UHGV virus genome: UHGV-1681308
From: a virus
DNA: 17,734 bases
Strand: one strand, 5' to 3'
Numbering within the stretch: position 1 is the first letter of the stretch; every line of letters begins with the position of its first letter. Below are positions 1-17,734 of the stretch, in pieces. Below the pieces are notes generated by a model. The model was not told the origin of the DNA and searched no databases. It worked only from the letters and a program-made list of their open reading frames with translations. Position numbers and translations under genes: made by a program.

Positions 1-119
1 ATGTTGCAACCGTGGGTCACACGGTAAGAGGCGCGGTGATGGTGCTTGTGACATTTGTCACAAGCACCAAGTGATCCGCGAAGACAATCCGGTGCAACGC
101 CGGATGAGATCATGACAGT
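1..119 (+). mobile_element. tnpB: 3' terminus of a TnpB/IStron-type element truncated by the window edge: last 8 codons of tnpB (MLQPWVTR, stop at 25..27) plus omega-RNA scaffold to the right-end boundary
   Basis: Positions 1..119 align to 10192..10310 (3' end of the intact tnpB at 9133..10218 and its downstream region) at roughly 90% identity. Similarity stops abruptly after 119/10310. A 28-nt hairpin at 41..68 differs in stem sequence from the second copy but keeps its pairing. Confidence 0.7.
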
Positions 120-140
120 ACTATTTAACAGGAGCACACA

Positions 141-617
141 ATGACAGAGCGAGAATTGCGGCTCCGGCTGAGGCGGCTCCTGGGTACGGACAGGGGACTG
201 CCGGTCGAGAAGCTCGCTGCAGAACTGACGACACACAAGGTGGACATATTGCCGTACATGACGTGGTTGTGGAAGACACATGGACAGAAGTTCAGAGTGC
301 TGCTGACAAAGAAAGTGGCAGACTACGCAAAAGCGGCGGAAAAGGAAAAACAGAGCCTTCCGCAGCTGATCGTAAATGCTGGCACAATTTTCTTGCGACT
401 CTCAGAAGGCTCGCTTGAATCCGACAGGACTATCGAGATACTCGGTGACATGTGCGAACCTTATGCACTGTACTTCTTATTTGCAGGCGTAGGATTGCCC
501 TGCGACAAGTACCGCGCAGCAGCCAAGGAATACGCAGCTATGTTTCCTGACGCAGTGCGTGCTCTGCCTGAACCGTATAAGAAACTCGGAGAGGCTATGA
601 CACATGATACCACTTGA
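141..617 (+). CDS. hypothetical protein (158 aa), first gene downstream of the element right end
   Basis: ATG at 141 preceded by AGGAG (131..135). Stop overlaps the start of the next gene. No motif recognised. Confidence 0.6.
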   Translation: MTERELRLRLRRLLGTDRGLPVEKLAAELTTHKVDILPYMTWLWKTHGQKFRVLLTKKVADYAKAAEKEKQSLPQLIVNAGTIFLRLSEGSLESDRTIEILGDMCEPYALYFLFAGVGLPCDKYRAAAKEYAAMFPDAVRALPEPYKKLGEAMTHDTT

Positions 618-3102
618 CAAGCATGACTTGACTATGCTGCATGTGCTCAGCTCAGAGAAACTGATGCTGAAGTCGCTGAAGGCTGCCAAGGCAGGGCAGG
701 AACTGTTTCCACCGAGACGTGTACCGCATCTTGATCTGCTGTGGCGACACTTCATACGTTTCGCCATACAATCCAAGAAAGAAGGGCACTGGCTGCAGTG
801 GGACAGACAGGCGTATGTAGCTGACTGCCTCGAAGAACTGAAGCAGCGTGACGACATCAGCGACGAATGCAAAGCGCGATTCCAGGCAATATGCGTACAG
901 TATATCGGCGCTGAGCCATTGGACGCCGAGGCAGGCGACAAGCTGCTGCTGGAAGCTGTCAACGAAGCTATCAGAGCACAGATCAGCAGAGCCGTGTACA
1001 ATTCCGAGGCTTTCGACGGCATCAGACAACTGGTCAATAAAGGCGTCGCGCTGAAGGAGTCGTTGGAGACAGCTGACGAGAAGCAGAAATTGTTTGTGAA
1101 TCCGCTGCTTGAAGTCGAGACTTACCTGCATGTGTTGCCTAAGATGCCTACAGGTGTTCGCTACTTCGACAGAGTCACCAACGGCGGCATGTCTGAGGGC
1201 GAGGTAGCTTTGATTGCTGGATTGATGGGCGGTGGAAAGTGTCTTGGGAAAGACACACCCGTTCTCATGTACGACGGAACTGTAAAGAAAGTTCAGGATG
1301 TACGTGTAGGTGATCAGCTTATTGGTATGGACTCTACACCAAGAACAGTAATGTCTTTAGGTAGAGGTCGCAGTGAAATGTATAAAGTCACACCAGTAAA
1401 AGGTGATCCATTTACAGTTAACAGGTATCATATTCTGACAATGATATGCAGTGGTCCTGTAATATGGAAAGGAGTCAGATATAAACCAGGTGATCTTATT
1501 GATATCTGCGTTGAGGATCTGTACAGGCAATCCGACAGCTTTAAGTCACTTCTTAAGGTTATCAGAACAGGAGTGAACTTTAAACCTAAGGAGGAGCCTG
1601 AGTTAGATCCTTATTTTGTAGGTTTGTATTTGGGAGATGGAACGAAAGGAAAAGCCCAGATCACAACTGGTGACACAGAAGTTGTCGACTACTGTGTTAA
1701 GTATATGCAAGGTTTAGGTTTTGCATGTAATGTATCCAAAGATACTAGACATAACTGCGTTTATGTCAGTATAAGTAGAGCCAGCAACAAAACCGAAGGT
1801 GCGTTAACTATAATTCGTAGGAATACGTTTATAGATGATGAGAAGCGAATTTTGGATGTGTATAAGACTGGAAGCAGAGAGATTCGCATGAAAATACTTG
1901 CGGGTCTAGTTGACTCTGATGGATACACGCACCATGGTTTCCATGAGATAGTTACGAAGTATAGTAATCTAGCAGATGATATATGCTTCGTAGCGCGATC
2001 ATTAGGGTATGCAGCATATGTTAAAAAGTGTGAGAAAAAATGCTATAATACAGGTGCTGCAGGTACGTACTATAAGGTCAGTATATCTGGAGATTTCTCA
2101 GACTTACCTGTTTTGTTACCTAGACATAAGTTGTCAAAACGTAAGCAAGTCAAATCTGTGCTGAGGACAGGATATACTATAACCAAATTACCCGAGGATG
2201 AGTATTATGGGTTTACCATAGATGGTGATCACAGATTTCTTCTGGGTGACTTTACAATTACACATAACACAGCAACAGCAATCCAACTGGTAGGCAGTCA
2301 ACTGCTTGTAGGCAATCCAGTAGCATGGTTCACATTCGAGCAGCCGTTCGATCAGGACCTGATGCAGCGTATGGTATCCTTCATCACAGGCTACAGCCTG
2401 GACATCATACGTGGACGGGAATTCAAGGATCTGCCCGAGGACATTCGGGCAAAGTTTCTCACATTGAGCAACCAAATGTCGGACAAACTGATAGCAGCAG
2501 ACTTCTCGAACAACAACATGCTTGACAAGAACGATCCCGAGGATGATGGCTCTGTTTACAGTCTGTGCAAACGACTTGACATATGGGCTGACCAAGGCAA
2601 AGTGCCAAGCTACATCATGTTCGACTGGGTAGGCGCGGCAGTGAAACGCCTAGCGGCTGTACGCAGCATAGACATCGGGCAGATCACCAACTACATTGCG
2701 CTTGCCAATGAGATCATCGACGGTCTCGTACAGCTTGCCAAGCAGTACCATACGCGTGTAATCTTCTTTCATCAGCTGGATCCGGCGATCAAGAAGTCGC
2801 CTCCGTCCAGGAAGCCTACGACTGTGGAGCTTCAGATGATGAAGACGATGTCGAACTACACGCAGTACGCAATGGCAATCGGCAAGCGTGACGAAAATCA
2901 GCGCTGTTGGTTCATCTGCGACAAGTGCCGTAACAGCTACCCGTCAGAATGCGTCATCGAGCTGGATGGTGCACACGCCAAGTTCAATCTTCTGGAAGGA
3001 TATGCACCAGGCCGCAACGGACAGTTCATAAATATCAACGAGCTGCAGGAGGAGCTCAACGACAACAGTGACACGGCAGACAGCTACCAGCCTATAATCT
3101 GA
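604..3102 (+). CDS. intein-containing P-loop ATPase, probably a DnaB-like (SF4) replicative helicase; extein about 489 aa plus intein 343 aa
   Basis: Walker A GLMGGGK is followed immediately by Cys, and the extein resumes with T after the intein (reconstituted GLMGGGKT). C-extein has a Walker B-like YIMFDWV and a DnaB H4-like RVIFFHQLD. Extein size and P-loop position fit DnaB; a terminase or other RecA-fold ATPase is not excluded. Confidence 0.7.
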   Translation: MIPLDKHDLTMLHVLSSEKLMLKSLKAAKAGQELFPPRRVPHLDLLWRHFIRFAIQSKKEGHWLQWDRQAYVADCLEELKQRDDISDECKARFQAICVQYIGAEPLDAEAGDKLLLEAVNEAIRAQISRAVYNSEAFDGIRQLVNKGVALKESLETADEKQKLFVNPLLEVETYLHVLPKMPTGVRYFDRVTNGGMSEGEVALIAGLMGGGKCLGKDTPVLMYDGTVKKVQDVRVGDQLIGMDSTPRTVMSLGRGRSEMYKVTPVKGDPFTVNRYHILTMICSGPVIWKGVRYKPGDLIDICVEDLYRQSDSFKSLLKVIRTGVNFKPKEEPELDPYFVGLYLGDGTKGKAQITTGDTEVVDYCVKYMQGLGFACNVSKDTRHNCVYVSISRASNKTEGALTIIRRNTFIDDEKRILDVYKTGSREIRMKILAGLVDSDGYTHHGFHEIVTKYSNLADDICFVARSLGYAAYVKKCEKKCYNTGAAGTYYKVSISGDFSDLPVLLPRHKLSKRKQVKSVLRTGYTITKLPEDEYYGFTIDGDHRFLLGDFTITHNTATAIQLVGSQLLVGNPVAWFTFEQPFDQDLMQRMVSFITGYSLDIIRGREFKDLPEDIRAKFLTLSNQMSDKLIAADFSNNNMLDKNDPEDDGSVYSLCKRLDIWADQGKVPSYIMFDWVGAAVKRLAAVRSIDIGQITNYIALANEIIDGLVQLAKQYHTRVIFFHQLDPAIKKSPPSRKPTTVELQMMKTMSNYTQYAMAIGKRDENQRCWFICDKCRNSYPSECVIELDGAHAKFNLLEGYAPGRNGQFININELQEELNDNSDTADSYQPII
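1240..2268 (+). mobile_element. intein (343 aa) with LAGLIDADG homing-endonuclease domain, inserted in the Walker A P-loop
   Basis: N-terminal splicing block CLGKDTPVLMYDGT begins with Cys at 1240. Two LAGLIDADG motifs: YFVGLYLGDGTKG and KILAGLVDSDGYTHH. C-terminal block GFTIDGDHRFLLGDFTITHN is followed by the +1 nucleophile Thr at 2269. The intein DNA looks visibly AT-richer than the flanking extein. Confidence 0.85.
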
Positions 3103-3155
3103 CTTGCATTTTGCTGAATCTGTGCTATATTACTGTCCCTAAAAAGGAGACAGAT

Positions 3156-3659
3156 ATGGACAGATTCAGCACAATATTGCAGACAGCCAAGGCAAACTAC
3201 AGCACAACACATGGCGTTATCCTTAACCTGAGAAGCTCGAACAAACGTATACCGATCACGTTATGCGTATCCACAAGGCGCAACAGAAGTAAGATTGTAC
3301 CTACAGACTGCATTGTCTGGAGTAAGGATCGCATACTGTATCAGGGAACATTGACTGGCAAGCGCCTCAGGAACCTTATAGAGAAGTCTGACTTGTGCTG
3401 CATAGAGGTGACGAATGCTGTGGACATGGATTATGGTCCTGGCAAGTATATATGTCTTAACGATAAAGGTACCTGCCAGTGTACATCATGTCTGTGCCAC
3501 AAGCAGGATGACATCAGCTCAGTCCAGTGCTCAGATGCTGTAGCGTACAGAACAAATGCACTGGATGAACTGTGGCAGCAGGGAATAAAAGAATCAAGAA
3601 AAATACTAAAAGCAAAAAGAAAGGAAGCATTGCGTTATGCAACTGCTTTTTCTGGCTGA
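3156..3659 (+). CDS. hypothetical Cys-rich protein
   Basis: ATG at 3156 with AAGGAG at 3144..3149. The longest ORF begins at 3111, but 3156 has the RBS. No motif recognised. Confidence 0.55.
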   Translation: MDRFSTILQTAKANYSTTHGVILNLRSSNKRIPITLCVSTRRNRSKIVPTDCIVWSKDRILYQGTLTGKRLRNLIEKSDLCCIEVTNAVDMDYGPGKYICLNDKGTCQCTSCLCHKQDDISSVQCSDAVAYRTNALDELWQQGIKESRKILKAKRKEALRYATAFSG

Positions 3660-3936
3660 TGCCGGATCAACAATACACGCCTTTAAGAGCCCTGAAGCAT
3701 GTGTCAACCACGTCTTCAGGGTTTTTGCTGACGCCGGTAAAGGGCCGCATATAGAGAAACAATTATTCAGCAACTCAGATGGACTTCATATGGTAACAGT
3801 GAAGTCGTTCGACAAGAAGAAGGTGCTAGAGTTCATCAAGCAGATGCACCTGCACGCCTCATTCATTGTCGTGCTGAGAAACAGAGAACTGGATACAGAG
3901 GAACGGTACACCATCCGTAAGTCGTACTTAATGTGA
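3637..3936 (+). CDS. hypothetical protein (99 aa)
   Basis: ATG at 3637 with AAGGAAG at 3621..3627. Overlaps the preceding gene by 23 nt. Confidence 0.45.
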   Translation: MQLLFLADAGSTIHAFKSPEACVNHVFRVFADAGKGPHIEKQLFSNSDGLHMVTVKSFDKKKVLEFIKQMHLHASFIVVLRNRELDTEERYTIRKSYLM

Positions 3937-3954
3937 ACAAAATAAGGAGTACTG

Positions 3955-5334
3955 ATGCAAAAAGACATTACAAGATCAACACAGACAACATCCTATGTGA
4001 GAACAAGTATAGTAGACAACGAAGCTGCAGGAACTGATTTCCAGCAGGTTTTCCCATATCAGAAGAAGCTGTTCGGTCGCATTCTGTGGCCCAGCAAGGA
4101 CAGCATCGTGCGTATTGTACCCGGCAATGATGGTACACATACATTCCCGCAGGTAATCAACGCAGATACATGGACCACAGACGGTGACCAGACAAATTAC
4201 CTGTCTGACACTTTCTACATGACATACACTCTCAGCGGTTTCGGTGACAGCAAATGCGATATCTGCAGCAACCTGAAGCCAGGCAGTGATGAAGCCGCTA
4301 TGTATCCTGAATCCCCGCTCAATTACTTCTGCAACAAGATACATCGTACCATGCGGTATGTCTTGCAGGGTAAGGGCACGAAAGTCAGGTACAATGACAA
4401 GTGGCGCATGTGGACAGGGCTGCAAGGTACATTGCCGTTCCCGAAACCTACACTCATGTTCCAGGCTATCTGTGTACATCTGTGCGGAAGGGACTGTCTT
4501 AAGGAGGGCGAGGGAACTGATCCGGCACCTTTGTATGGCGTGATAGGCATCAATAACAAGACATCCATTGGCGAGCTCGTCAAGGCGCTTGTCGCACCCA
4601 TGGACAGACGCAGACCCATCGGTACAAACAACAACACATATGGTGCACTTGCAGAGGCGGCAGGCAACGTACTGTATCTGAACAGCGTCATAGACACTCA
4701 AGAGCACAAGTATCTTCAGCCCAGCATTCAGAGTTCGTCTGCACCTGCAAACAGCTGGGAACCTCAGCAGTACGACCTGACAGAGGACCTGTGCAAGCAG
4801 CTGTGGGTTCCCTGGGATAGAGTGCTGAAATACTATACAGTAAAAGAGCAGCTCGAACTTATAGCGTCTGAGTTTGGCGCTGATACTGTGAATTACGTGT
4901 TCTCTCTGTCTCCGCAGTGGGAAGGTCTGCAGATTCCTGAGCGCATTGCCGCTGTAGGTATGGGGCAGTACGCAGAGAATGCTCAGAGAGCTCCTTCATA
5001 TAGTGCCTTTGGACAGAACGTGCAGAAACAGGCATTTGGCAGTGCTCCCAGACAGGCAGCGCCAGCTTCAACGGCAAGTGCTGTTCCTGGGCTCAGCAGG
5101 GCTGCTCAGCCGTCTTTTGCGCTGCCGAATACGACACCTTTAGCCGGTGGCACTGCAAGTCCTGCTGTAAGCATGGACAGCATCAAAGCAGAGCTGGCAA
5201 AGATCAGAGCGGCCGCCAATACTGCACCCAGTGGAGCGGGAGCATTGGCAAGTGCTATGTTGAACGATCTCGAACTGCCGCCTGATGATGACGTCTACGA
5301 AGCTACAGGTGAGGAAAGTCTGGGAATCGAATAA
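3955..5334 (+). CDS. hypothetical protein (459 aa) with a low-complexity Ala/Ser/Pro region and an acidic C-terminal tail; possibly an ssDNA-binding or other replication accessory protein
   Basis: Strong RBS AAGGAG at 3944..3949 and ATG at 3955. C-terminus ...LELPPDDDVYEATGEESLGIE follows a disordered A/S/P-rich segment. Function is guessed from the tail and the replication-gene neighbourhood only. Confidence 0.6.
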   Translation: MQKDITRSTQTTSYVRTSIVDNEAAGTDFQQVFPYQKKLFGRILWPSKDSIVRIVPGNDGTHTFPQVINADTWTTDGDQTNYLSDTFYMTYTLSGFGDSKCDICSNLKPGSDEAAMYPESPLNYFCNKIHRTMRYVLQGKGTKVRYNDKWRMWTGLQGTLPFPKPTLMFQAICVHLCGRDCLKEGEGTDPAPLYGVIGINNKTSIGELVKALVAPMDRRRPIGTNNNTYGALAEAAGNVLYLNSVIDTQEHKYLQPSIQSSSAPANSWEPQQYDLTEDLCKQLWVPWDRVLKYYTVKEQLELIASEFGADTVNYVFSLSPQWEGLQIPERIAAVGMGQYAENAQRAPSYSAFGQNVQKQAFGSAPRQAAPASTASAVPGLSRAAQPSFALPNTTPLAGGTASPAVSMDSIKAELAKIRAAANTAPSGAGALASAMLNDLELPPDDDVYEATGEESLGIE

Positions 5335-5346
5335 CTAAAACATTCA

Positions 5347-5368: not shown

Positions 5369-5383
5369 ATAAGGACAAACAAG

Positions 5384-6406
5384 ATGAAAACAAAAAGAGT
5401 ACTGAAGAAAAACGCAATCAAGGCTTACAAAGCCTTCAACAGTGACCTGACTTGCAAAGGCTTCCGGTATGAAGTCGGCAAGGAATACCACCATAAAGGC
5501 AAGCTTGAGCTGTGCGAGGCAGGCTTCCATGCCTGCCCCAAACTGACTGACTGCTTCAATTTTTACCCGTTCGATAAAACTGAAACCAGAGTGGCCGAGG
5601 TGCTCGTCTGGGGTAAAGTCGAGTACGAAGACATAGGTGACAAGCTCTGCGCCTCAAATATCAAGGTAGTCAGAGAACTTACATGGACAGAGGTGTTGTC
5701 TCTGTGTAACAGCGGCTGCCGTAACAGTGGCTACCGTAACAGCGGCTGCCGTAACAGTGGCAACGGTAACAGTGGCAACCGTAACAGTGGCAACCGTAAC
5801 AGTGGCAACCGTAACAGCGGCTACGGTAACAGCGGCGATTGTAACAGTGGCAACTGGAATAGCGGCAACAATAACAGCGGCAATGGTAACATCGGCCACC
5901 GTAACAGCGGCTGCCGTAACAGTGGCAGCTGGAACAGCGGCGACGGTAACAGTGGCTACTTAAATACTCCGGCACAAAAGTATAGCTTTATTTTTAACAA
6001 ACAAGTTGAAAAGTCAGTCTTGGCTCAGATTGAGTTTCCGGAGTTCATGTGCTTCACTTTGTCAAAATGGATACCTGACTTCATAATGTCACAGCAGGAG
6101 AAAAAGCAGCACCCTGAATACGTTACAACAGGCGGTTATCTCAAGAAGTACACATATAAGGAAGCCTTCAGGAAGTCCTTCGAGGAAGCCAGACGCAAAC
6201 CTGACTGGCCCGAACAGCTTGAGAAGCTGAAATCACTGCCTAACTTCGATGCCAAGGTATTCGAGGAGATATCAGGCATCAAATCAAACGCACTTGGAAT
6301 CAGCGCTAAGGAGCTGGCAGACAAGGCAAAGACAGCCATGGAAGTCACAATGGCGGACATAGAGAAGGTATTCGGTTGCAAAATCAAGATTGTAGAGGAG
6401 AAGTGA
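5384..6406 (+). CDS. pentapeptide-repeat protein (N-x-G-x-x type, about 17 pentads) with conserved Cys/His-containing N-terminal domain and conserved C-terminal domain; paralog 1
   Basis: ATG at 5384 with AAGGA at 5371..5375. Central region is NSGCR NSGYR NSGCR NSGNG NSGNR NSGNR NSGNR and so on. N-terminal VLKKNAIKAYKAFNSDLTCKGFRYEVGK...CEAGFHAC and C-terminal KQHPEYVTTGGY...PDWPEQL...LPNFD.KVFEEISGIK are shared with 10835..11797. Confidence 0.8.
   Translation: MKTKRVLKKNAIKAYKAFNSDLTCKGFRYEVGKEYHHKGKLELCEAGFHACPKLTDCFNFYPFDKTETRVAEVLVWGKVEYEDIGDKLCASNIKVVRELTWTEVLSLCNSGCRNSGYRNSGCRNSGNGNSGNRNSGNRNSGNRNSGYGNSGDCNSGNWNSGNNNSGNGNIGHRNSGCRNSGSWNSGDGNSGYLNTPAQKYSFIFNKQVEKSVLAQIEFPEFMCFTLSKWIPDFIMSQQEKKQHPEYVTTGGYLKKYTYKEAFRKSFEEARRKPDWPEQLEKLKSLPNFDAKVFEEISGIKSNALGISAKELADKAKTAMEVTMADIEKVFGCKIKIVEEK
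5706..5957 (+). repeat. about 17 tandem copies of a 15-bp unit (GTAACAGYGGCNNNN) encoding the pentapeptide repeats, including three consecutive identical units
   Basis: Direct reading: cgtaacagtggcaac occurs three times back-to-back around 5765..5815, flanked by near-identical units. The period of 15 nt (5 codons) keeps the frame. Confidence 0.85.
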
Positions 6407-8234: not shown

Positions 8235-8460
8235 TCTTGATGTAGATGTGTCGGACCTTATGTGTCCGCACTGCGGTTCTGTCGACAGTGTCAAGTTGAT
8301 CGACCTTGGACCCGAACGAGATGCAGAGGGCGAATACGGTAACGTCAGATGCACCTGCTATGAGTGCGGCTGGTCGACATGTGACATGGATACAGCAGAG
8401 GACGCAGTGTACGCTTTTATCATCGGTCTCGACTGTGATATCAGGCACGACATAATATGA
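8221..8460 (+). CDS. small zinc-ribbon protein (about 79 aa)
   Basis: CPHCG ... CTCYECG four-Cys pattern. The ORF is open from 8059, but that part overlaps the preceding gene, so the start is placed at ATG 8221. Stop overlaps the next start (ATGA). Confidence 0.45.
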   Translation: MQTVNLDVDVSDLMCPHCGSVDSVKLIDLGPERDAEGEYGNVRCTCYECGWSTCDMDTAEDAVYAFIIGLDCDIRHDII

Positions 8461-8657
8461 AACCGATAGGCTACGGGAAGCTCACCAAGTTCCTCAAAGC
8501 CACAGCACCGATATCAAAGCAGTTTGAGAACGAAGTTCTGCGGGATGAGCGTCTCGCAGAACTTTTTTCGTGTGTAGCTGAGGTTGTGCTGCCGAAAGCT
8601 ACAGAACCGCAGAGATGGGCGTTGTGGCAGTGTTTCAAGGGTCTGAAAGGCGTTTAA
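8457..8657 (+). CDS. hypothetical protein (66 aa)
   Basis: ATG at 8457 overlapping the upstream stop. Ends 27 nt before the IStron left end. Confidence 0.45.
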   Translation: MKPIGYGKLTKFLKATAPISKQFENEVLRDERLAELFSCVAEVVLPKATEPQRWALWQCFKGLKGV

Positions 8658-8683
8658 CAACGCCCTTTAACCAGTGATGGCTA

Positions 8684-9110
8684 TCGAACAAGAAAGTGAA
8701 TTGCTAATAGATCCCAAGAGCCTCACGACGCCTGTAACAAGGATCGAAAGAGAAAACAAAGAAGTGAGGATACCGCAAGGCGACAGTAAGCCTAAACGGG
8801 AGTGACAACGGACGTTTAGCAGCCGAGCCATGCGTTCGACAGAACGCCAGCGCATGGAAGGTTCATCGACTATCCCAGATGGGAGTACCCGAGTAGCCAT
8901 GCTGCGACAGCAGCAAAAGTAAGGGGAAGCACTCTGGCTCAGGAATGAGTCAATGATATAGTCAGTGCTTCATGGAAACATGAAGAGTGGTCTCCTATTG
9001 ACACGGAGAAACCTGCTGTTACCCTGGCAAGGTACAGTGAACAGAACCATGGTCTCATTAAATGCAACATTAATTTGACGTTTTGATTTTCTGTATAAGG
9101 ATGTATATTA
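8684..9110 (+). ncRNA. putative group I intron ribozyme core (IStron intron module)
   Basis: R-like element GTTCATCGACTATCC (8861..8875) and S-like element GATATAGTC (8955..8963) can form P7 (GACTA/TAGTC). Several hairpins lie between them and upstream (ctaaacg/cgtttag at 8792..8819, gcgttc-gaca-gaacgc at 8832..8847, gctgc-gaca-gcagc at 8901..8914). No ORF. Not verified by a covariance model. Confidence 0.5.
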
Positions 9111-9132
9111 TCTGTATACAATAAGGAGTGCC

Positions 9133-10218
9133 ATGTACAGAGCCCACAAGATACGCATAGATTGCACAAGAGAGCAGCACAGCCTGTTAATGCAGACTGC
9201 TGGCTGCGCTCGTTATGCGTACAATTGGGGACTCGATAAGTGGGGCAAGATGTACGAAGCCTGGAAGGCTGATGCCTCGCAGGAGAAACCGGACAGATAT
9301 TCTGTAGCCAGACAGTGGACACAGGAGAAACCAGAGTGGGCAAATAAGACATCCAGAAGTCCAGTTGACTACTCTTTTATCAACCTCGGCACCGCCTTCA
9401 AGAACTTCTCAAGGCGCAAAACAAAGTACCCGAAGAAGCACAAGAGGTCACAGGGAATCTCATTCCAAGTGGCACCTGACAAGGCAGCTATAGTTGACAA
9501 CCAACTTAGACTGCCTAACATAGACTACGTGAAGCTCCGAGAGACTCCACGCTTCCAGGGCAAGATAACAGGCTACACAGTTCAGTACATAGCTTCCCAC
9601 TGGTACGTTACAATCGCCTTCGACTGTCCAGACGTCCCAAAAGAAGCACCGGAGTCCGTCGTCGGTATCGACGTAGGACTCCAGCACCCTGCTGTAGCCT
9701 CCGATGGCACCAAACTAGAGCTCCCCATAGAGAAGCTCCAAAAGCTCGAAGTCAAGAAACGTAGAGCACAGCGAGCCCTCAGCAGGAGCAAGAGAAACTC
9801 CAATGCGCGAAAGCGCAAGCGTACCAAACTCCAGCGTATACAACAGAAGATTACCAACATCCGTCAGGATGCAGCCCACAAGTTTACAACTACGGTGAGC
9901 AAAAACCACGCCACTGTAGTCACAGAAGATCTGGACATAAGTGAGCTCCAAAAGAAGGCCCCCGCACGTTCAGTGCGCAGAGCATACAACAGCTCCCTTA
10001 TGGGAACCATTCTTTGGCAGATCTCGTACAAAGCGGTGCACCATATCAAGGCACCAAAGTACTTTCCGAGCACCAAGAGATGCTCAACTTGTGGACATGT
10101 GAAGGAGGCTATGCCTCCGAACGTCAGGACATATCATTGCGACCACTGCGGTACACATCTCGATAGAGATGAGAACGCAGCTCGCAACTTGATGTTGCAA
10201 CCGTGGGTCACACGGTAA
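9133..10218 (+). CDS. tnpB: TnpB (OrfB) RuvC-like RNA-guided nuclease, IS200/IS605 family
   Basis: 361 aa. N-terminus MYRAHKIRIDCTREQHSLL...RYAYNWGL. RuvC-I GIDVGL, RuvC-II VVTEDLD, zinc finger CSTCGH...CDHCG, RuvC-III DRDENAARNL. RBS AAGGAG at 9123..9128. Confidence 0.9.
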   Translation: MYRAHKIRIDCTREQHSLLMQTAGCARYAYNWGLDKWGKMYEAWKADASQEKPDRYSVARQWTQEKPEWANKTSRSPVDYSFINLGTAFKNFSRRKTKYPKKHKRSQGISFQVAPDKAAIVDNQLRLPNIDYVKLRETPRFQGKITGYTVQYIASHWYVTIAFDCPDVPKEAPESVVGIDVGLQHPAVASDGTKLELPIEKLQKLEVKKRRAQRALSRSKRNSNARKRKRTKLQRIQQKITNIRQDAAHKFTTTVSKNHATVVTEDLDISELQKKAPARSVRRAYNSSLMGTILWQISYKAVHHIKAPKYFPSTKRCSTCGHVKEAMPPNVRTYHCDHCGTHLDRDENAARNLMLQPWVTR

Positions 10219-10326
10219 GAGGCGCGGTGATGGTACAGGCAGCATTCGCTGCAGGTACCAGATGATCCGCGAAGACAATCCGGTGTAACGCCGGATGAGA
10301 TCATGACAGTGCGTGTAACACATCGA
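10120..10326 (+). ncRNA. putative TnpB omega RNA (reRNA) scaffold overlapping the tnpB 3' end, plus about 16 nt of flank as guide (gcgtgtaacacatcga)
   Basis: Scaffold conserved with the copy at 1..119, including a hairpin at 10232..10259 with compensatory stem changes and a second conserved hairpin atccggtg-taa-cgccggat. Conservation ends exactly at 10310. The 5' boundary is a guess. Confidence 0.5.
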
Positions 10327-10834
10327 CATATAGTGTCCTGTATCTGCAGAGCAGCAGCAAACCTGCACTACATCCACGAGGGTATCGCACCCTTCTATTG
10401 GGATGGCAACAGGGCAGCTGCTGTGATGAATTGTCTAGGTATAGAACAAGATGTAGCCGCTAAAGGAAAGCGCAGACTGCTAGTGCATTTGATGTGTCTG
10501 CTGGGTGAACCTGCCGGACTGATGTTCAAGGTATCTCTGAGCTGCAACATGCTGGAGTACTTGCTGGGCAAACATTTTGGCGTCTCTTTTCGAAAGTATA
10601 ATGCAGCGGCTGAAGAGATCGCCGGTTGTGTCTTCAAGTGCACAGTAAGTGAGGACACAGCAGGGGCCTATCTAGCGGATTTCAGCGCAACACAAGCTAT
10701 GAAAGACCACAACAGAAAGCTGGCAGAGATGCGCATAAACCCAAGAAAATGTAAAACACCTGCAATGCCATGTGCATCCTGTACTAAAACCAGGGCTCAG
10801 TGCATTTTGGCATGTAAAGTTAAGGACAAACAAA

Positions 10835-11797
10835 ATGAAAACAGAAAAAGTACTGAAGAAAAATGCAATCAAGGCCTATAAAGCCTTCAACAGCGACCTG
10901 ACCTGCAGAGGCTTCCAATATGAAGTCGGTAAGACCTACAGACATATATTCCTAATCCGCTGTTGCGAGTCAGGATTCCATGCTTGTGAAAGGCTGGTTG
11001 ACTGCTTTGGCTACTATGAACCAAACCAAGCAAAAACTCGAATTTGCGAGGTTCTGGTCTGGGGCGATATTCAGAGGCATGATAAAGACACCAAGTTATG
11101 CGCATCCAGAATCCATATTGTCAAAGAGTTGTCCTGGAACAAAGTATGTCGTCTATGCAATAATACCGGCATCGGCAATCAGGGCTTATATAACTCTGGG
11201 AATTATAACAGTGGAAACTCAAATTCCGGTAACTGGAATGCAGGCAATAACAACAAAGGTAAGTACAATTCAGGTGATTGTAACATTGGTTTAGGTAATG
11301 TAGGCACAGGCAATATAGGCAATAATAACTGTGGCCAATATAATTACGGTCATAGGAATTCCGGAAACAATAACATAGGATGCCGCAATGTAGGAAACTA
11401 CAATACGGGCTACTATAATGTCGGTAACTGGAACAAAGGGTCGTTTAATATCGGCTGCTTCAATACAGCAGATGCCATTGTACATATGTTTAACAAGCCT
11501 GTTGTCGGAATCAGTCCATTCGATATTTTAGTCCCAGGTTTCTGCATCTTTGATACGACAGAATGGGTGTCGGCCAGATGTATGACAGATGAAGAAAAGA
11601 AGCAGCACCCTGAGTACGTTACAACAGGAGGATACCAAAAACAATACGCCTACAAGGAAGCCTTCAGGAAGTCCTTCGAGAAGGCAAAGCGACTCCCAGA
11701 TTGGCCCGAACAGCTTAAGAGGCTAAAGGCGCTGCCGAATTTCGATGTAAAGGTATTTGAGGAGATATCAGGTATCAAGGAAGAGGAACTTATGTAA
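10835..11797 (+). CDS. pentapeptide-repeat protein (degenerate N-x-G-x-x repeats), paralog 2 of 5384..6406
   Basis: ATG at 10835 with AAGGA at 10822..10826; the RBS and first ~110 nt are roughly 90% identical to paralog 1. Repeat region GNYNSGNSNSGNWNAGNNNKGKYNSGDCNIGLGNVGTGNIGNNN... The conserved C-terminal domain ends ...FEEISGIKEEELM. Confidence 0.8.
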   Translation: MKTEKVLKKNAIKAYKAFNSDLTCRGFQYEVGKTYRHIFLIRCCESGFHACERLVDCFGYYEPNQAKTRICEVLVWGDIQRHDKDTKLCASRIHIVKELSWNKVCRLCNNTGIGNQGLYNSGNYNSGNSNSGNWNAGNNNKGKYNSGDCNIGLGNVGTGNIGNNNCGQYNYGHRNSGNNNIGCRNVGNYNTGYYNVGNWNKGSFNIGCFNTADAIVHMFNKPVVGISPFDILVPGFCIFDTTEWVSARCMTDEEKKQHPEYVTTGGYQKQYAYKEAFRKSFEKAKRLPDWPEQLKRLKALPNFDVKVFEEISGIKEEELM

Positions 11798-12688: not shown

Positions 12689-13287
12689 CTGTAGACGATT
12701 TGGTTATGTTCGATACCAAGAAGCTTCTTGACTTCTTTAAGATAGATCAGTGCCCTGACTGGGCAGAGTGGGTCGCTGTAGATAGTGATGGAACGGTCTG
12801 TTATTATTCTGCTGAACCTACTATACTTAATACTTATAAGGATGAATGGAGGTGTGAAACAGTTAGACATAACTTTCGACCTGTCAGGATAAATGGCAAT
12901 AATATTAAAATTACTGTCGAGGACTGGACAAAAGCGAAAGTCAAGAGGCCTCCTACAGGCAATGAAATGTTTCTTGGTAAGTGCAGAAACATTTATGTCC
13001 ACATGAAAGACTCTAAGTATGTAGTTGCTTTCGAGTGCCGCACAGAGGATACCTATGACAACGATAGCTATTATTTGGAATTGACAGTCGAATTGGCAGC
13101 AGAGATATTCTCGAGAGACTTAGGGCATATCATTGCTGAGTGGCTGGGTAAGGATGTGTCTGTAGAAACCGAAGGTTCACATATTCGCAGTGCTCTTCAG
13201 TCCAGTATACCTGAAGCTTTCTCAGCCGCAGTTACTGATGTTCGTCTGTCATCAGGGCCAGGCACGAAAGGTCTGTGCAAAATATGA
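12685..13287 (+). CDS. CPDWA-motif protein (200 aa), paralogous domain to 11808..12149
   Basis: ATG at 12685 with GAGGAGG at 12671..12677. Motif DQCPDWAEWVAVDSDGTVCYY near the N-terminus. AT-richer than its neighbours. Confidence 0.6.
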   Translation: MTVDDLVMFDTKKLLDFFKIDQCPDWAEWVAVDSDGTVCYYSAEPTILNTYKDEWRCETVRHNFRPVRINGNNIKITVEDWTKAKVKRPPTGNEMFLGKCRNIYVHMKDSKYVVAFECRTEDTYDNDSYYLELTVELAAEIFSRDLGHIIAEWLGKDVSVETEGSHIRSALQSSIPEAFSAAVTDVRLSSGPGTKGLCKI

Positions 13288-13324
13288 AAACACTCAAAGA
13301 TTAAAGTAACAGAGAGGAGAATGT

Positions 13325-14665
13325 ATGAAAAAAGGACTCGGAAACCTGCTGGATGCACTCAGTAAGGCAGACGGCGGCGTCAGTATGTCCATTACAGAAT
13401 TCAAAGAAGCCCAGTACGGCATTCCGCTTAAGCATTACTGTTTGCAGTATCTTTTCGGCAGCACCGGGCTCAGGTACGGCGGCTTTTATCTGCTTGCCGG
13501 TAAGCCGAAGTCGTGCAAATCGCCCTTTGCTTTCTTCCTTGCACATCTCAGCTGCGAGAATGATGGCATTGCATATGTGTACGAACTTGAAGGCAAGGCG
13601 TCACCGACGTTGCTGACCAGCATGTTTGCAGACAGGCCCGAATGGCGAGAGGATGGCGGCCCTTTCAAGCTCATCCGAGGACTGACATTGGACGGCGCCG
13701 AGAAGCACCTTACAAAGTCTGTGCTCAAACTTTTCAAGCAGTACGAGGTTTACGATACTCCGCTGCTGATCGACTGGGACTCCATCTCAGGAGCTGCGAT
13801 GTCAGATGTCGTGTCCAAGATCGAGAAGGAAGGCGTAGCCAGTAAAGGCTACTATGAAAAAGCGCACATCATGAAGCATCTGACAGAGAGCTGGGTCGCA
13901 CTTACCAACAACATGCCTGTCGTGTTCGTCGGCGTCTTGCAGGAAAAGGAAAAGGCTGCAGAGGGATGGGCACCTGCAGGCGGACCGCAGAAGTCGTATG
14001 GCGGTGGCGATTCGCAGTTGTTCAAGGCAGGTACATTACTGTCGTTCTCTCACAGCACGCTGCAGAACGGTGCTGGCAAGCTCGTTCGTATCAAGACTGC
14101 ACTGAACGGATTTGCAGACAGCAGAGGCATTGAAGTAAAGTTTGTCTGGGATCAGTTCGGCGACCTTGAGACCGATTCACAGGGGCACAAGTGGCTTTTC
14201 GCAGAGGCGACGGCAAAGTGCCTCGCACAGCCGAAGATCGTAGGCGAGCTCAGAGACATCATTGATGTGAAGATCAATGATTCCGGCGACAGAGTGACTT
14301 GCAAGACGTTCGGTCTTGACAAGGTTACAGCAACAGAGTTCGAGGAAGCCCTGTTTGCGCCTGAGAACGCCAAGGTACTGGAAGATCTGTACAGATACCA
14401 AAAGATAGAAAAGATCAAGCTGCCCTCAGAGTATGCAGCTTACGCCGAGAAAGCAGGAGACAAGGAAGCCGCATATAAAGAGGCGCAGAAGCAGGCACAG
14501 CTCGAAGAGCGTGAGGCCAAGGCTGCGGAAGCTGCCGCAAAGGAAGCAGCCAAGCAGGCAAAACGAGAGGCGAAAGTCAAGAAGTCAGCTGCGGCATCCA
14601 ATCCGTTAGCGGCTTTAGCAGACATGGCAAAGAAAGCTGAGGCATCAGATGCAAAAGCTGAATAA
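13325..14665 (+). CDS. RecA-family recombinase, UvsX-like, with a Lys/Ala/Glu-rich low-complexity C-terminal tail
   Basis: Variant Walker A LLAGKPKSCKS resembles the T4 UvsX GPSKSFKS type. Walker B-like PLLIDWDS. L2-like GGPQKSYGGGDSQLFKAG. YVYELEGKASPTLLTSMFADRPEW resembles the UvsX segment after Walker A. RBS GAGGAG at 13314..13319. Confidence 0.7.
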   Translation: MKKGLGNLLDALSKADGGVSMSITEFKEAQYGIPLKHYCLQYLFGSTGLRYGGFYLLAGKPKSCKSPFAFFLAHLSCENDGIAYVYELEGKASPTLLTSMFADRPEWREDGGPFKLIRGLTLDGAEKHLTKSVLKLFKQYEVYDTPLLIDWDSISGAAMSDVVSKIEKEGVASKGYYEKAHIMKHLTESWVALTNNMPVVFVGVLQEKEKAAEGWAPAGGPQKSYGGGDSQLFKAGTLLSFSHSTLQNGAGKLVRIKTALNGFADSRGIEVKFVWDQFGDLETDSQGHKWLFAEATAKCLAQPKIVGELRDIIDVKINDSGDRVTCKTFGLDKVTATEFEEALFAPENAKVLEDLYRYQKIEKIKLPSEYAAYAEKAGDKEAAYKEAQKQAQLEEREAKAAEAAAKEAAKQAKREAKVKKSAAASNPLAALADMAKKAEASDAKAE

Positions 14666-14990
14666 CAAGCGCGTGTTCTGTACACCTTACGACGATCAGC
14701 GTATCGTGACAGCAAAAATCAAGAACGAAAAACACTATGTACTGAAAGCATGTCCGTTCTGCGGACGCAAGCCGGTAATCGAGACAGTGGAGCCGATATT
14801 CCATGATGATAAAGTCCAGTACTTTGTCTCATGTGCGCACCACGGCTGCGACTGCTACACAAGAACCTATCGCAGCCCAGGTGAGGCAATCGCGAAATGG
14901 AACAGACGCATCAGTCCGCTCGATCGCATTGTCGCTTCTGACTTGAAACGCAGTCTTAAAGCAGCGCAGAAAGAGGCGACAAATGTGTGA
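14649..14990 (+). CDS. Lar-family restriction-alleviation-like small Cys protein (putative anti-restriction)
   Basis: CPFCG ... SCAHHGCDC ... EAIAKWNRR matches the pattern I recall for Lar-family proteins (CPFCG zinc motif, conserved AW-NRR near the C-terminus). The identification rests on recalled motifs, not a search. Confidence 0.5.
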   Translation: MQKLNNKRVFCTPYDDQRIVTAKIKNEKHYVLKACPFCGRKPVIETVEPIFHDDKVQYFVSCAHHGCDCYTRTYRSPGEAIAKWNRRISPLDRIVASDLKRSLKAAQKEATNV

Positions 14991-15684
14991 TACATCAGAG
15001 TGGCCCACTACAGCTCAGGCTGTCAAGGAAATGATGACCGAAGTCTGTGATAAGAACCTGTTCGATTCAGGCGGCGCTTACGGATACGCCTACGAGCGTA
15101 GGGCCAATTGTGACAAGGAACCTGAATTCAAGACACATTACGAGCTCCTCGACAACGGCAAGTTGTACATAGAGGCTACGAAAAGCATGTACTGGCATCT
15201 TGTGAACACTTGTCAGTACAGACACGACCTCACTGTTATGCTGGATGCATATGCGGATCTCAAAGACGAGCGCTACGGAACATGTCTTGGTGAGGACTTC
15301 TTCGCCTCGTTTGGTCTCAAGTCAGGGTCAGACAATACATGCAACACTGAGACTATGCTGGACGGTACGTTTCTGTTCACGCATGCATACATCAGCGATG
15401 AAGCGACAGACCTTTTCGTGATCAGCACACACAATGGCTGTGACGTCAGATCTGGTTACAGCAGCGCCAAAGTATTCGAGAGTCCGGACGCTGAAGTCCT
15501 GTACAGCTTGGACAGTGCAAATCTTATGTGTCACAGATGTGATATACAGTTCGACCTGTCATCCAGTGGTACACGGACACTTGATCCTGACCAGTTCAGA
15601 CTCGAAAAGAACGATGACTTGCCGTACTTTGTTGATGGTAAACTGTACTGCCCAAAGTGCCACAAGCCGCTGGAGGTGTCCTGA
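14983..15684 (+). CDS. hypothetical protein with C-terminal zinc-ribbon-like CxxC...CxxC
   Basis: ATG at 14983 with AAGAGG RBS. MCHRCD ... CPKCHKP at the C-terminus. Confidence 0.55.
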   Translation: MCDTSEWPTTAQAVKEMMTEVCDKNLFDSGGAYGYAYERRANCDKEPEFKTHYELLDNGKLYIEATKSMYWHLVNTCQYRHDLTVMLDAYADLKDERYGTCLGEDFFASFGLKSGSDNTCNTETMLDGTFLFTHAYISDEATDLFVISTHNGCDVRSGYSSAKVFESPDAEVLYSLDSANLMCHRCDIQFDLSSSGTRTLDPDQFRLEKNDDLPYFVDGKLYCPKCHKPLEVS

Positions 15685-16160
15685 TGCCGAATGCACAGCT
15701 TATGGCTGCGCTGCACGCAAGTACCAAAGCGTTGCGTGAAATGGCACGCGACGACGCCACATACGACTTCGTGTATGCGCACAAAAACATGTTCGTCGGC
15801 AACAGAGAAGCCTTCAAGTCTGCTGTAGCCGCGTGTCAGGAGCGCTCAGGCAGAGAGCTGCTTGACAAGCTGGATCTGCAAGAGATCTGCATCGAGAAAG
15901 TAACCGAAGCAGAACTGCTGCACAGCTGCTACTACTTTGTCGACAGTCCACTGTATAAGCGCTTCATTCAGCTCACCAGCAGGCATGGCGGCATAGGTAC
16001 GGCAATCTTCGTCGTCAACAAGCGAGGCGTTGTTGTCACTAATAAGTACAGTCTGGACGCCTACGTACGGGTCAAGCATGTACTTGGCAGCACCGGTAAG
16101 TTGCCTGACATCATGTGGGCGCCAATAGAAGACCTTAAAGGTTTCACGTTCTACAACTAA
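15684..16160 (+). CDS. hypothetical protein (158 aa)
   Basis: ATG at 15684 overlaps the upstream stop (TGATG), with GGAGGTG at 15672..15678. Confidence 0.55.
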   Translation: MPNAQLMAALHASTKALREMARDDATYDFVYAHKNMFVGNREAFKSAVAACQERSGRELLDKLDLQEICIEKVTEAELLHSCYYFVDSPLYKRFIQLTSRHGGIGTAIFVVNKRGVVVTNKYSLDAYVRVKHVLGSTGKLPDIMWAPIEDLKGFTFYN

Positions 16161-16169
16161 GGAGGTTGG

Positions 16170-17734
16170 ATGCTGGAAACAAAAGTCATGTTCAATGCCA
16201 CAGAGCTCACAATCAAAGTGTCTGTGTGGGCACGGGGCGACCCGTTCCCTGCTATTGGGCATGCTGTAGGTATAGACACAGAAACCGAACTTATTACGGA
16301 CGCCGAGCTTACGCCGCCATTGGTTGTACTCGGCGTTTTCAATCCTGCCGACATGACTTGCTACCAGATAGCATGGAGTGATGCACAGTACTTCATGCAG
16401 GAGCTGCTTAAGCGTGACTGCAAGCTGTACTTCGCCAATGCAGGGTTCGACTACTTCGAGCTGGAGAGTGATGAGCTTCGGGATGCGGTCAGCAATGACC
16501 GTCTCGTAGACTTGCTCATCAGAGCTCCGCTTAAAGAGATCGCCACTATAGGGTACATCAGAACGCACAGCCTGAAGGACGCCTGCCAATGGCATCTCAA
16601 TTACGAGATGGACAAACATGAGGACGAAGGCGACCAGGCAGCTCGTGTCACGTTCCGCAGGAACAAAGACATCACAGATGAGCAGCGCATTTACCTGGCA
16701 ATCGACTGCGCGGCTACTTATTACGGGTGCGAGGCGATTGGTCCTCAGGCGACAGAGTGTACACATACACGCGGTCAGATAGTCCTGTATCATATCAGCA
16801 AGAACGGTTTTCCGTACGACCCGTACATGTTCGACTACTGCGAGAAGCTGCTGCAGCAGCATATGGATCAGTATCGTGCAGAGCTCATCACGTACGGGTA
16901 TCCGGATCCGTACAAGAAAGATATGCCCACTGAAATCAAGCAGCTGCAGGACGGCTGGCCTATGTTCAGGGACGCCTGGTTCGCTGCGCATATCAAAGAA
17001 AAGTACCAGTTCGAGGACTCGCTGCCAGGCAAGAGCACAGTAAAGCGCATACTGCTGTACGGCACTGCGTATATGCAGCACGGTACAGATAAAGGCACTC
17101 TGGCGCGGGTGTTCGCAGCATTGCTGCTGCAGGACAAGAACCTGTCCAAAAAGGAACAGGCTGCATATGACCAGCTGGTGGAGGAGCACGACTTCCTGGA
17201 TGCCTGCAATGGTATCGGCAAGAAGGAGGTTTGGCCGACGCTGCTGGTCGCGTGGATGCGTGCCGAGATGGACGGCAAGGACATCGCTGGCATATGGCAG
17301 GCAGTGGACGATGCGGTGCAGGACCATCCGCAATGGTTCTGTACTGAGGAGCCTGTCAAGCCCAAGGCATTCATGCAGGACCACCTGCGGGAACTGCAGG
17401 AAAAGTACCCTGGACTGGAGTTCGACAAGACGCTTAAGTCAGGTGAGCTGAAGTGCTCAAAGAAGGACGCGTGGAAGCTGGCGGATGCGGGGGTGAACGA
17501 TCCGTTGCTGACCGCGTACGTGAACTTTGGTCATGTGCAAAAGTACAAGTCGTCGTTCACGAACAGGGAATACCTCAGGAGCGACGGCAGAGTAAGGTGC
17601 CGCTTTGGCATCGTGGAGAGCGGTCGGTTTGGCCGCTTCACACCGCGAGGTGTGTCGAACAAGAAAGTGAATTGCTGGAACACCTTAACGGGTAACGCCG
17701 AAGGCAATCAGCAGCCGAGCCTTGTATCGAGAGA
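16170..17734 (+). CDS. family-A DNA polymerase, N-terminal part (3'-5' exonuclease domain plus start of polymerase domain); runs off the window and is probably interrupted by an IStron from about 17655
   Basis: Strong RBS TAAGGAGG at 16158..16165. Exo I VGIDTETE, Exo II NAGFDYFEL, Exo III YLAIDCAATYY. The frame stays open to the window end; the track omits it only because it has no stop in the window. From 17655 the DNA matches the IStron 5' end, so sequence beyond about 17654 is probably intron, not exon. Confidence 0.65.
   Translation, partial: MLETKVMFNATELTIKVSVWARGDPFPAIGHAVGIDTETELITDAELTPPLVVLGVFNPADMTCYQIAWSDAQYFMQELLKRDCKLYFANAGFDYFELESDELRDAVSNDRLVDLLIRAPLKEIATIGYIRTHSLKDACQWHLNYEMDKHEDEGDQAARVTFRRNKDITDEQRIYLAIDCAATYYGCEAIGPQATECTHTRGQIVLYHISKNGFPYDPYMFDYCEKLLQQHMDQYRAELITYGYPDPYKKDMPTEIKQLQDGWPMFRDAWFAAHIKEKYQFEDSLPGKSTVKRILLYGTAYMQHGTDKGTLARVFAALLLQDKNLSKKEQAAYDQLVEEHDFLDACNGIGKKEVWPTLLVAWMRAEMDGKDIAGIWQAVDDAVQDHPQWFCTEEPVKPKAFMQDHLRELQEKYPGLEFDKTLKSGELKCSKKDAWKLADAGVNDPLLTAYVNFGHVQKYKSSFTNREYLRSDGRVRCRFGIVESGRFGRFTPRGVSNKKVNCWNTLTGNAEGNQQPSLVSR
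17655..17734 (+). mobile_element. 5' terminus of a second IStron-like element (group I intron module) inside the polymerase gene; truncated by the window edge
   Basis: 17655..17676 is identical (22/22) to the left end at 8684..8705. The downstream block agcagccgagcc and the taacggg segment are shared with 8792..8830. This copy lacks an ~85-nt segment present at 8706..8790. Confidence 0.5.

Follow-up and report, generated by a model that had tools for sequence, protein, structure and literature searches.

The IStrons that have been studied experimentally, in which a group I intron is fused to an open reading frame (ORF) of an insertion sequence (IS), come from Clostridia and Bacillus. Group A IStrons lie after TTGAT, ATTAT or TTTAT, follow a U-ending exon that forms a U·G pair, end in TCAG and carry an IS200-type Y1 ORF A (Tourasse 2014, PMC4227781). 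Group B IStrons follow a G-ending exon, pair the first U of the intron with G, use the GG-ending targets AGGG, TGGG and GAGG, and have the 3′ end CGG; their closing stem is long and AU-rich, and their ORF A, an IS607 serine recombinase, is often missing (PMC4227781). Members are BcISt1 and CbISt1-4, including those of Clostridium botulinum phages c-st and D-1873, and CsISt1 of C. sporogenes is an outlier that has ORF B only, lies after AG and ends in CAG (PMC4227781). In the IS607-family CboIStron, one transcript either splices or yields the guide RNA of the nuclease TnpB, and the element has a serine transposase TnpA, a TGGG target-adjacent motif (TAM, the short motif that TnpB requires) and a scaffold ending in UCGG (bioRxiv 10.1101/2023.11.20.567912; 10.64898/2026.03.11.711047). 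Here we describe UHGV virus genome UHGV-1681308, a stretch of 17,734 nt that we call the window, in which an IStron family occupies two sites and a probable sister intron lies in the gene for a family A DNA polymerase (polA).

Phages are also home to group I introns with protein homing endonucleases, among them T4 td with I-TevI, the SPO1 DNA polymerase intron with I-HmuI and the Twort orf142 introns, and such introns spread between co-infecting phages by cutting intron-less alleles. We consider it likely that the window has been colonised by a single group I intron family, present as two IStrons that lack TnpA and as a related polA intron that most probably lacks tnpB. The source is an uncultured human-gut phage, and the window is a fragment of its genome; contigs of related phages reach 95-195 kb and were examined within 10 kb of each sequence match. 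The window is the entire SPAdes contig ENA ERZ773229 NODE_1285_length_17734_cov_4.58 and not a slice of a larger record, so both of its ends are assembly breaks inside repeats. Two other assemblies break at the same bases, one at the left end (L004) and one at the right (L009).

A direct-repeat search of the window returns one pair at 1-119 and 10192-10310 (87% identity) and another at 8665-8705 and 17636-17676 (78% identity, the final 22 nt exact), and all repeats and all genes lie on the + strand. The original prediction had read these repeats as three co-oriented IStron copies or ends, at 1..119, 8684..10310 and from 17655 onward, around gene blocks of 7-8.5 kb. The repeats and their shared orientation are real and the blocks measure 8534 nt (first) and 7315 nt (second), but empty alleles and the P1 helix move the true ends to 118, to 8653..10309 and to 17625. 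Copies 1 and 2 are distinct IStrons; the third element is most likely an intron without an ORF, as judged from the contig L007. The three elements are as follows.

1 to 118, + strand: 3′ part of IStron copy 1, truncated where the contig begins; 87% identical to 10192-10309
8653 to 10309, + strand: complete IStron copy 2 (1657 nt), its ends taken from the empty alleles in contigs L138, L139 and L140
17625 to 17734, + strand: 5′ part of a group I intron (110 nt), cut by the contig end

Copy 2 interrupts a phage gene of 255 codons at what we call site B.

8457 to 8652, + strand: exon 1 of the 255-aa gene, ending ...AAAGGCG; its last 4 nt (8649-8652) pair with the intron guide as P1
10310 to 10881, + strand: exon 2 of the same gene, from in silico splicing and uninterrupted homologues

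Related genomes supply empty alleles for both window sites, as the original prediction had suggested looking for: L006 for site A, that of copy 1, and L138, L139 and L140 for site B. The occupied site B reads ...CTGAAAGGCG, then the 1657 nt of the element, then TGCGTGTAAC...; the empty site reads ...CTGAAAGATG/TGCGTGTAAC... in L138 and ...AAAGGTG/TTCGTGTAAC... in L139 and L140 (slashes mark junctions). The element thus begins 31 nt upstream of the coordinate first given and its last base is the G at 10309, while the T at 119 and the T at 10310 are the first exon bases. Comparison of occupied with empty alleles reveals no target duplication at site A or site B. In silico removal of copy 2 joins 8457-8652 in frame with 10310-10881 and yields a 255-aa ORF, and uninterrupted homologues cross the exon junction, P0121 at 91-92% identity and others (P0123, P0125) at 52-53% and 44%. 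At the DNA level, the element ends fall on the predicted splice sites, and excision of copy 2 makes its host gene whole again; the predicted splice junction at site B is ...CTGAAAGGCG/TGCGTGTAAC..., that is ...AAAGGCG/TGCGTG....

Alleles of site B without the IStron have GATG (L138:~975-990) or GGTG (L139:~6195-6205) where the occupied allele has GGCG (window 8649-8652), and the empty allele of site A retains the guide-pairing GGCG. The altered bases at empty site B could reflect resistance, co-conversion or chance. Copy 2 and the L136 element both have a TAA stop among their first 5 nt. In L139 and L140, the 255-aa gene carries an insertion at a second, different site.

The 5′ half of copy 2 is a group I ribozyme, and its conserved elements can be read off the sequence.

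8653 to 9058, + strand: group I ribozyme of copy 2, from the Rfam Intron_gpI match and covariation
8661 to 8664, + strand: P1 guide, CGCC
8668 to 8683, + strand: P2
8692 to 8707, + strand: P3/J3-4/P4
8816 to 8824, + strand: Q element, preceded by a large P5 extension
8861 to 8872, + strand: R/P7, with P7.1 and P7.2 present
8936 to 8951, + strand: P8
8952 to 8963, + strand: S/P7′
8968 to 8985, + strand: P9, with P9.1 and P9.2 present
9048 to 9058 (5′ arm) with 10295 to 10305 (3′ arm), + strand: closing stem of 9-11 bp that encloses the tnpB insert

All four classical elements are legible: P (AAUUGC...), Q (...AGCAGCC), R (GUUCAUCGACUA) and S (AAUGAUAUAGUC). The layout is IA2-like, with P7.1, P7.2 and a P9 extension. 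We aligned the ribozymes of nine tnpB-bearing copies from five contigs (window 8649-9135 and eight others) and counted 48 base pairs in P6a, P7, P7.1, P7.2, P8, P9, P9.1 and P9.2. Pairing is kept in 94.8% of cells, compared with 27-37% after the 3′ partners have been shifted by 1-3 columns; compensatory changes on both sides occur in 27 of the 48 pairs, and none of 500 shuffles reaches the observed covariation score. Four hairpins of the 3′ tail are 88% paired, against 27-44% when slid. The pairing of the ribozyme and of the 3′ tail is under selection at the RNA level.

The closing stem is itself compensated between subfamilies, CATGGTCTCAT with ATGAGATCATG in one and CATGGACTT with AAGTTCATG in the other, the second subfamily being made up of L073a, L073b and L139a. 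A plain hairpin replaces this stem at the equivalent position of the ORF-less polA intron, which places the IS module in the terminal loop of the ribozyme. For each of the helices P6a, P7.1, P7.2, P8, P9, P9.1 and P9.2 there are two or three alternative self-complementary cassettes, and these are reassorted among copies, which implies that the introns often recombine with one another.

In P1, the final four bases of the exon pair with a guide 8 nt downstream to form a 4-bp helix. In copies whose exon ends in G (G-type), this G is Watson-Crick paired with C, no U·G pair occurs anywhere in P1, and the first intron base is U, C or A. Among six aligned G-type copies from five sites, the exon and guide positions are 100% paired, with three pair types at one position; P1 and P2 of the window-type left end together are 98% paired and covary (six aligned copies, five distinct sites). 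Over six sites, the pairings are GGCG:CGCC at three (including L136), GGAG:CTCC at two and GAGG:CCTC at one, this last site being common to L073b and L139a.

This arrangement, in which a target 4-mer is followed by an 8-nt spacer, a complementary 4-mer, 3 nt and a subterminal hairpin, with the 4-mers covarying over six sites, is also what an IS608-type left end would look like. The element could then spread by an IS200/IS605 TnpA acting in trans, and the 4-nt guide 5′ of P2 would program both the insertion site and P1. The closest solved TnpB, from the IS200/IS605 element ISDra2, and the absence of target duplication agree with such an origin. IS608 can reportedly be retargeted by changing its guide, which we also count in favour. 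However, no tnpA was found in any locus, pairing of P1 in the RNA alone predicts the same covariation, the left ends of U-type copies are quite different although their right end is the same, and the CAG 3′ terminus and G-ending targets resemble the IS607-type group B outlier CsISt1. We think transposition in trans by this route unlikely.

The insert within the closing stem consists of tnpB and a structured right end.

9083 to 9111, + strand: promoter-like site (TTGATT, 17-nt spacer, TATTAT), from a consensus scan only, with 9/12 matches; weak evidence
9133 to 10218, + strand: tnpB, 361 aa, predicted RNA-guided RuvC nuclease, from Pfam and structure matches
10150 to 10309, + strand: structured 3′ tail, predicted omega-RNA scaffold (fold z-score -4.3), which overlaps the predicted 3′ splice site and the 3′ arm of the closing stem

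TnpB of copy 2 matches the Pfam families OrfB_IS605, HTH_OrfB_IS605 and Cas12f1-like_TNB and aligns end to end with the ISDra2 TnpB structures 8BF8, 8H1J and 8EX9 (E 1e-40). Its residues D180, E265 and D346 align with D191, E278 and D361 of ISDra2, and a CxxC...CxxC zinc finger is present. The protein thus combines a RuvC D-E-D triad with a zinc-finger/TNB domain, and its gene is followed by a structured 3′ tail, as in TnpB nucleases. Between copies, the ratio of nonsynonymous to synonymous divergence (dN/dS) of tnpB is 0.14-0.22, a sign of purifying selection. The right end ...ATGAGATCATGACAG, with its terminal G, is kept in all ten subfamily-1 ends, and the tail architecture of the second subfamily looks alike by eye. 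The weak promoter-like site could give tnpB and the omega RNA a separate transcript. An IS-type ORF B therefore lies inside the intron, enclosed by the closing stem, as in other IStrons. The element itself has no tnpA, only about 70 nt lying between ribozyme and tnpB, and no Y1-transposase or resolvase Pfam family was found among the called genes of the flanking DNA. In this it differs from an autonomous IS200/IS605 or IS607 element, which encodes TnpA.

Copy 1 is represented in the window by its right end and 3′ flank.

1 to 27, + strand: last tnpB codons and stop of copy 1
28 to 118, + strand: structured 3′ tail of copy 1, ending ...ATGAGATCATGACAG with a terminal G
119 to 617, + strand: 3′ flank of copy 1, with a ribosome-binding site and the gene that follows (141-617)

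Copy 1 is complete in L001 (8321-9978, 1658 nt), a sibling contig of a different sample, and is followed there by the first genes of the window. The more distant L006 has an empty site A that reads ...AAATTGGCG/TACTACTTAACAGGAGC, that is ...TTGGCG/TACTAC, with flanks 91-94% identical. The splice junction predicted for site A is ...AAATTGGCG/TACTATTTAAC..., and by analogy with described elements the sequence from 119 onward would supply the omega-RNA guide of copy 1. Copies 1 and 2 are 89% identical overall (ribozyme 85%, tnpB 90%, tail 83%), with a longest common exact run of 194 nt. One tail hairpin differs between them and stays complementary, GGTGCTTGTGAC with GTCACAAGCACC in one copy and GGTACAGGCAGC with GCTGCAGGTACC in the other.

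These data bear on whether the window could be an assembly artefact, with one element in the genome and contig ends produced by the collapse or mis-joining of repeats. As a whole contig the window has both ends in repeats, and L004 and L009 break at the same bases, as such an artefact might. Yet 1-118 differs from 10192-10309 at 13% of positions, including the compensated hairpin; L001 contains an unbroken copy 1 flanked on either side, copy 2 lies away from the contig ends, and other contigs provide separate empty alleles for site A and for site B. A sequence difference of 11-13% means that the two are not one collapsed copy, so the single-copy case raised in the original prediction is excluded, and an artefact of any such kind is extremely improbable. 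We also asked whether the contig could be circular, with its two ends forming a single element, and rejected this: polA must run past the right end, and in L001 copy 1 is preceded by a flank of its own.

The right end of the window lies within polA.

16170 to 17624, + strand: polA exon 1 (N-terminal part of a family A DNA polymerase), ending ...GAGAGCGGT, which encodes ...ESG; the frame is open to the contig end
17619 to 17637, + strand: P1 of the polA intron, with a U·G pair at the splice site
17639 to 17654, + strand: P2, hairpin CACACC-GCGA-GGTGTG
17663 to 17678, + strand: P3/P4
17706 to 17716, + strand: Q element

The sequence AGCGGU/C-GGUUU-GGCCGCU forms a canonical P1 with a U·G pair, so that the intron starts at 17625, after ...AGCGGT. 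L007 shares the final 1934 nt of the window at 100% identity and extends across the break. There, the first polA intron is 308 nt long and contains no ORF, IS-derived or other; after it come a 27-nt micro-exon (RTSASKPNL) and four further introns of 256-528 nt. In all, polA in L007 (6993-11048) comprises six exons and five group I introns of 308, 271, ~281, 528 and 256 nt, positioned at conserved motifs (SGR/TSASKPNL/QQYP, DYS, RQRAKAV/ and NFVH/DE). The six exons join into an 803-aa protein with an above-threshold Pfam DNA_pol_A match (45.8 bits, residues 423-769) that extends over all junctions, whereas exon 1 alone has no Pfam DNA_pol_A match. The exon 3/4 junction is uncertain: of four possible 3′ splice sites one was scored, and the canonical glutamate of motif A is not recovered. 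The first polA splice junction is predicted as ...GAGAGCGGT/CGCACATCGG.... A repeat of 83 nt, 98.8% identical, between polA introns 1 and 3 explains the contig break at the right end. We conclude from these sequences that the third element is a related group I intron and probably not an IStron.

Taken in full, the original prediction would give a different picture, in which three tnpB-bearing IStrons multiplied recently and act mainly as substrates for recombination that deletes or duplicates the 7-8.5 kb blocks. The repeats are indeed real and co-oriented, with exact runs of up to 194 nt between copies, a length that suffices for homologous recombination. Over 76 nt, the polA intron has a 5′ module 96% identical to that of the tnpB-bearing L139b, and a tnpB could lie past the contig end. 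On the other hand, L007 reads through an ORF-less intron in DNA that matches the window exactly, and copies 1 and 2 are 11% diverged, with a tnpB dN of 0.049, dS of 0.36 and ratio of 0.14. Such divergence is not evidence of a recent duplication in this genome. The family itself is mobile on an evolutionary scale, with at least ten sites. Variants without the intervening blocks, which the prediction had proposed to look for, were not found: gene order is constant in four other contigs, which cover the first block wholly or for the greater part, and in two sibling contigs for the second, with no block deletion or duplication in any of them. The first block holds a helicase-like gene, and its deletion may not be viable. 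Block rearrangement between IStron copies is thus possible in principle and was not observed, while the shuffled helix cassettes show that the copies do recombine. As an account of the window, three recent tnpB-bearing copies are improbable.

Beyond the window, full-length TnpB relatives form 41 clusters at 90% identity; they are 81-100% identical, all metagenomic, and lie on contigs of up to 195 kb. Close relatives of TnpB were not found in GTDB representative genomes, where archaeal matches reach 32-33% only; in GenBank phages all TnpB matches are below 60%, and at most 33% among the matches listed. GenBank phages also gave no DNA match to the window and a single distant match to the spliced PolA. 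Together, these results point to an uncultured lineage. Related contigs carry two to four tnpB-bearing copies each, for instance four copies of two subfamilies on a 95-kb IMG/VR contig and two on a 192-kb contig. At least ten different insertion sites occur in related phage contigs, and both window sites have occupied and empty alleles. IMG/VR appears to hold few relatives, since a 34-nt left-end pattern found one copy and a 19-nt right-end pattern five. A scan of viral contigs with a 14-nt motif was unspecific and was set aside: it returned at least 120 matching stretches, and a minority of the listed loci carry the intron family.

Four sister copies (L010a, L010b, L012 and L139b) have the same right end and a TnpB 84-85% identical to that of copy 2, but U-ending exons and a different P1; the boundaries of L139b follow from the empty allele of its site, site D, in the window. 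An intron of the same family also lies in a tRNA anticodon loop (Gln-CUG-like by eye) at L100:2540-2870, on the - strand of an IMG/VR contig, next to a tRNA-Met gene. The 21 kb around the IStron in L136 and L137 have sparse gene calls, gaps of several kb and many tiny ORFs, which suggests further introns or a reassigned stop codon.

Compared with the published groups, the window family shares several traits with group B: the fusion of IS ORF B to a group I intron that has P7.1 and P7.2, a G-ending exon, G-rich targets, no target duplication, a missing ORF A and occurrence in phages. CsISt1 is the nearest description, having ORF B only, lying after AG and ending in CAG, as does the window family. 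In contrast to group B, however, the targets are GGCG, GGAG and GAGG, so that only the GAGG sites end in GG, the 3′ end is ACAG rather than CGG, and, with a first intron base of C, U or A, the shifted U-G pair is absent. Further differences are the short (9-11 bp) and balanced closing stem, as in group A, the ISDra2 (IS200/IS605) TnpB as closest solved relative and an uncultured gut phage as host. Group A, represented by the IS200/IS605-type CdISt1 of Clostridioides difficile, offers the same ribozyme-plus-TnpB architecture, a short balanced closing stem, a TCAG end that ACAG resembles, a subterminal hairpin in the P1/P2 region and an ISDra2-like TnpB; the G-ending targets, the ACAG end and the lack of ORF A (Y1 tnpA) set the window family apart from it. 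With this mixture of traits, the element fits neither published group cleanly.

With CboIStron, the window family shares a right end in which the predicted 3′ splice site and omega-RNA scaffold overlap, a transcript that may either splice or yield a guide RNA, and a TnpB predicted to cut the vacant site and thereby keep the element in place. The serine TnpA, the TGGG TAM and the UCGG end of CboIStron were not found in the window family, and the functional steps proposed below are by analogy. The resemblance to phage introns lies in the choice of DNA-metabolism genes hit at conserved motifs, with the polA intron in ...SGR/TSASKPNL...; the nuclease here would instead be an RNA-guided TnpB and not a protein-only homing endonuclease, and the polA intron is ORF-less. 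The kind of element is thus already known, also in phages, and the window family is new on four counts: its targets end in G and its 4-bp P1 covaries without a U·G pair, its IS module consists of tnpB only, it resides in gut phages, and it has sister introns that lack an ORF.

We propose that the terminal hairpin of the ribozyme was opened by an IS200/IS605-type module of tnpB and a structured right end, without tnpA. By analogy with described IStrons (Tourasse 2014; Zedaveinyte 2023/2024), the element would be co-transcribed with its host gene, and its RNA would splice itself out, so that insertions are tolerated. In an alternative fate, TnpB would bind the 3′ part of the transcript as omega RNA, with the first ~16-20 nt of the 3′ exon (from 10310 in copy 2) as guide. 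Splicing and guide formation would be mutually exclusive, since the scaffold contains both the 3′ splice site and the stretch at 10295-10305 that forms the 3′ arm of the closing stem. The TnpB complex may then cut intron-less alleles that present the 5′-flank motif and the 3′-exon sequence (...GGCG+TGCGTGTAACACATCG for copy 2), either during co-infection or after excision, and repair from an occupied copy would retain or spread the element, a form of RNA-guided homing. Spread to new sites would need a factor not encoded here, such as TnpA in trans, reverse splicing or recombination among related introns. As a tentative extension, possible but not likely, TnpB may have replaced a protein homing endonuclease, TnpA-less IStrons persisting and spreading between co-infecting phages by RNA-guided cutting of intron-less alleles, and their ribozyme splicing after a Watson-Crick-paired G in a 4-bp P1 without U·G; the 4-nt guide may also set the DNA insertion site.

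Several observations weigh against a family of functional IStrons with an ORF-less polA sister. The Rfam Intron_gpI (RF00028) match at 8642-8985 scores 31.9 bits (E 8e-6), under the 50-bit gathering score, which is why an Rfam scan of the window at gathering thresholds returns no match. Splicing of copy 2 and its exact splice sites are predicted from DNA alone, and a 5′ splice site shifted 3 nt into the element would equally preserve the frame. At site A, an unspliced insertion ends a formate/nitrite-transporter-like ORF after 5 codons (LKNAL*; window 119-400, L001:7811-8320, L006:1650-2450), whereas the spliced or empty site gives this ORF a 94-codon tail that overlaps the gene at 141-617 out of frame, so that splicing there is not obviously restorative. 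No single TAM is evident from the 5′ flanks, which differ (GGCG, ...GTT, ...GCT and ...GGT) among copies whose TnpB is 84-85% identical to that of copy 2; this weakens the case for homing. For the third element, besides the close match to L139b given above, the 110 nt in the window are compatible with a tnpB-bearing version, although L007 speaks for an ORF-less one.

Some relatives have also lost the ribozyme in part or in whole: L136:9805-11176 keeps the left end, tnpB and right end and has lost P4′ to P9, and L011:2936-4177 keeps tnpB without any ribozyme. Along with truncated tnpB genes in L005:2-1349 (275 aa) and L139b (153 aa) and the lack of tnpA, this could mean that the copies are decaying relics that neither splice nor guide, with tnpB a domesticated or inert passenger. 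Both window copies, however, have complete ribozymes with abundant compensatory changes and an intact tnpB with its catalytic residues and a dN/dS of 0.14, and copy 2 lies inside a conserved 255-aa ORF that would otherwise be split. Decay is quite improbable for these copies, and two TnpA-less IStrons with a related polA intron remain our preferred reading.

Other features of the window lie between the three elements.

604 to 3102, + strand: 832-aa ATPase/helicase-like ORF with an intein (Pfam Hom_end_hint and Hom_end/LAGLIDADG)
5384 to 6406 and ~10835 to 11797, + strand: paralogous genes with DUF7666 and pentapeptide repeats
14649 to 14990, + strand: ORF that matches Pfam Lar_restr_allev (restriction alleviation protein Lar)

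In the first of these, the ATPase (KaiC) match ends where the Hint domain begins, and the intein is a third kind of selfish element within 17.7 kb. A further paralogue of the pentapeptide genes lies downstream of polA in L007. The pentapeptide repeats are encoded by a 15-nt tandem repeat at 5676-6005, and sub-threshold Rfam matches to isrG and MIR7526 at 5675-5967 are noise from this repeat. A second Lar gene is found upstream in L001.

IStrons are a known case of one RNA that chooses between being an intron and being a nuclease guide, and the window adds a sizeable gut-phage family with 41 TnpB clusters and ORF-less sisters in polA and a tRNA gene. The family lacks a transposase, has occupied and empty alleles and shuffles its helix cassettes, and so offers material on the maintenance and movement of TnpB introns in viruses. 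In practice, gene callers are misled where such elements divide phage genes, and metagenome assemblies break at them, as at both window ends. The G-ending splice site with its covarying 4-bp guide helix bears on how group I ribozymes set a 5′ splice site without a U·G pair. If the tentative proposal for the guide is true, one tetranucleotide would program the insertion site of the element as well as its ability to splice at that site.

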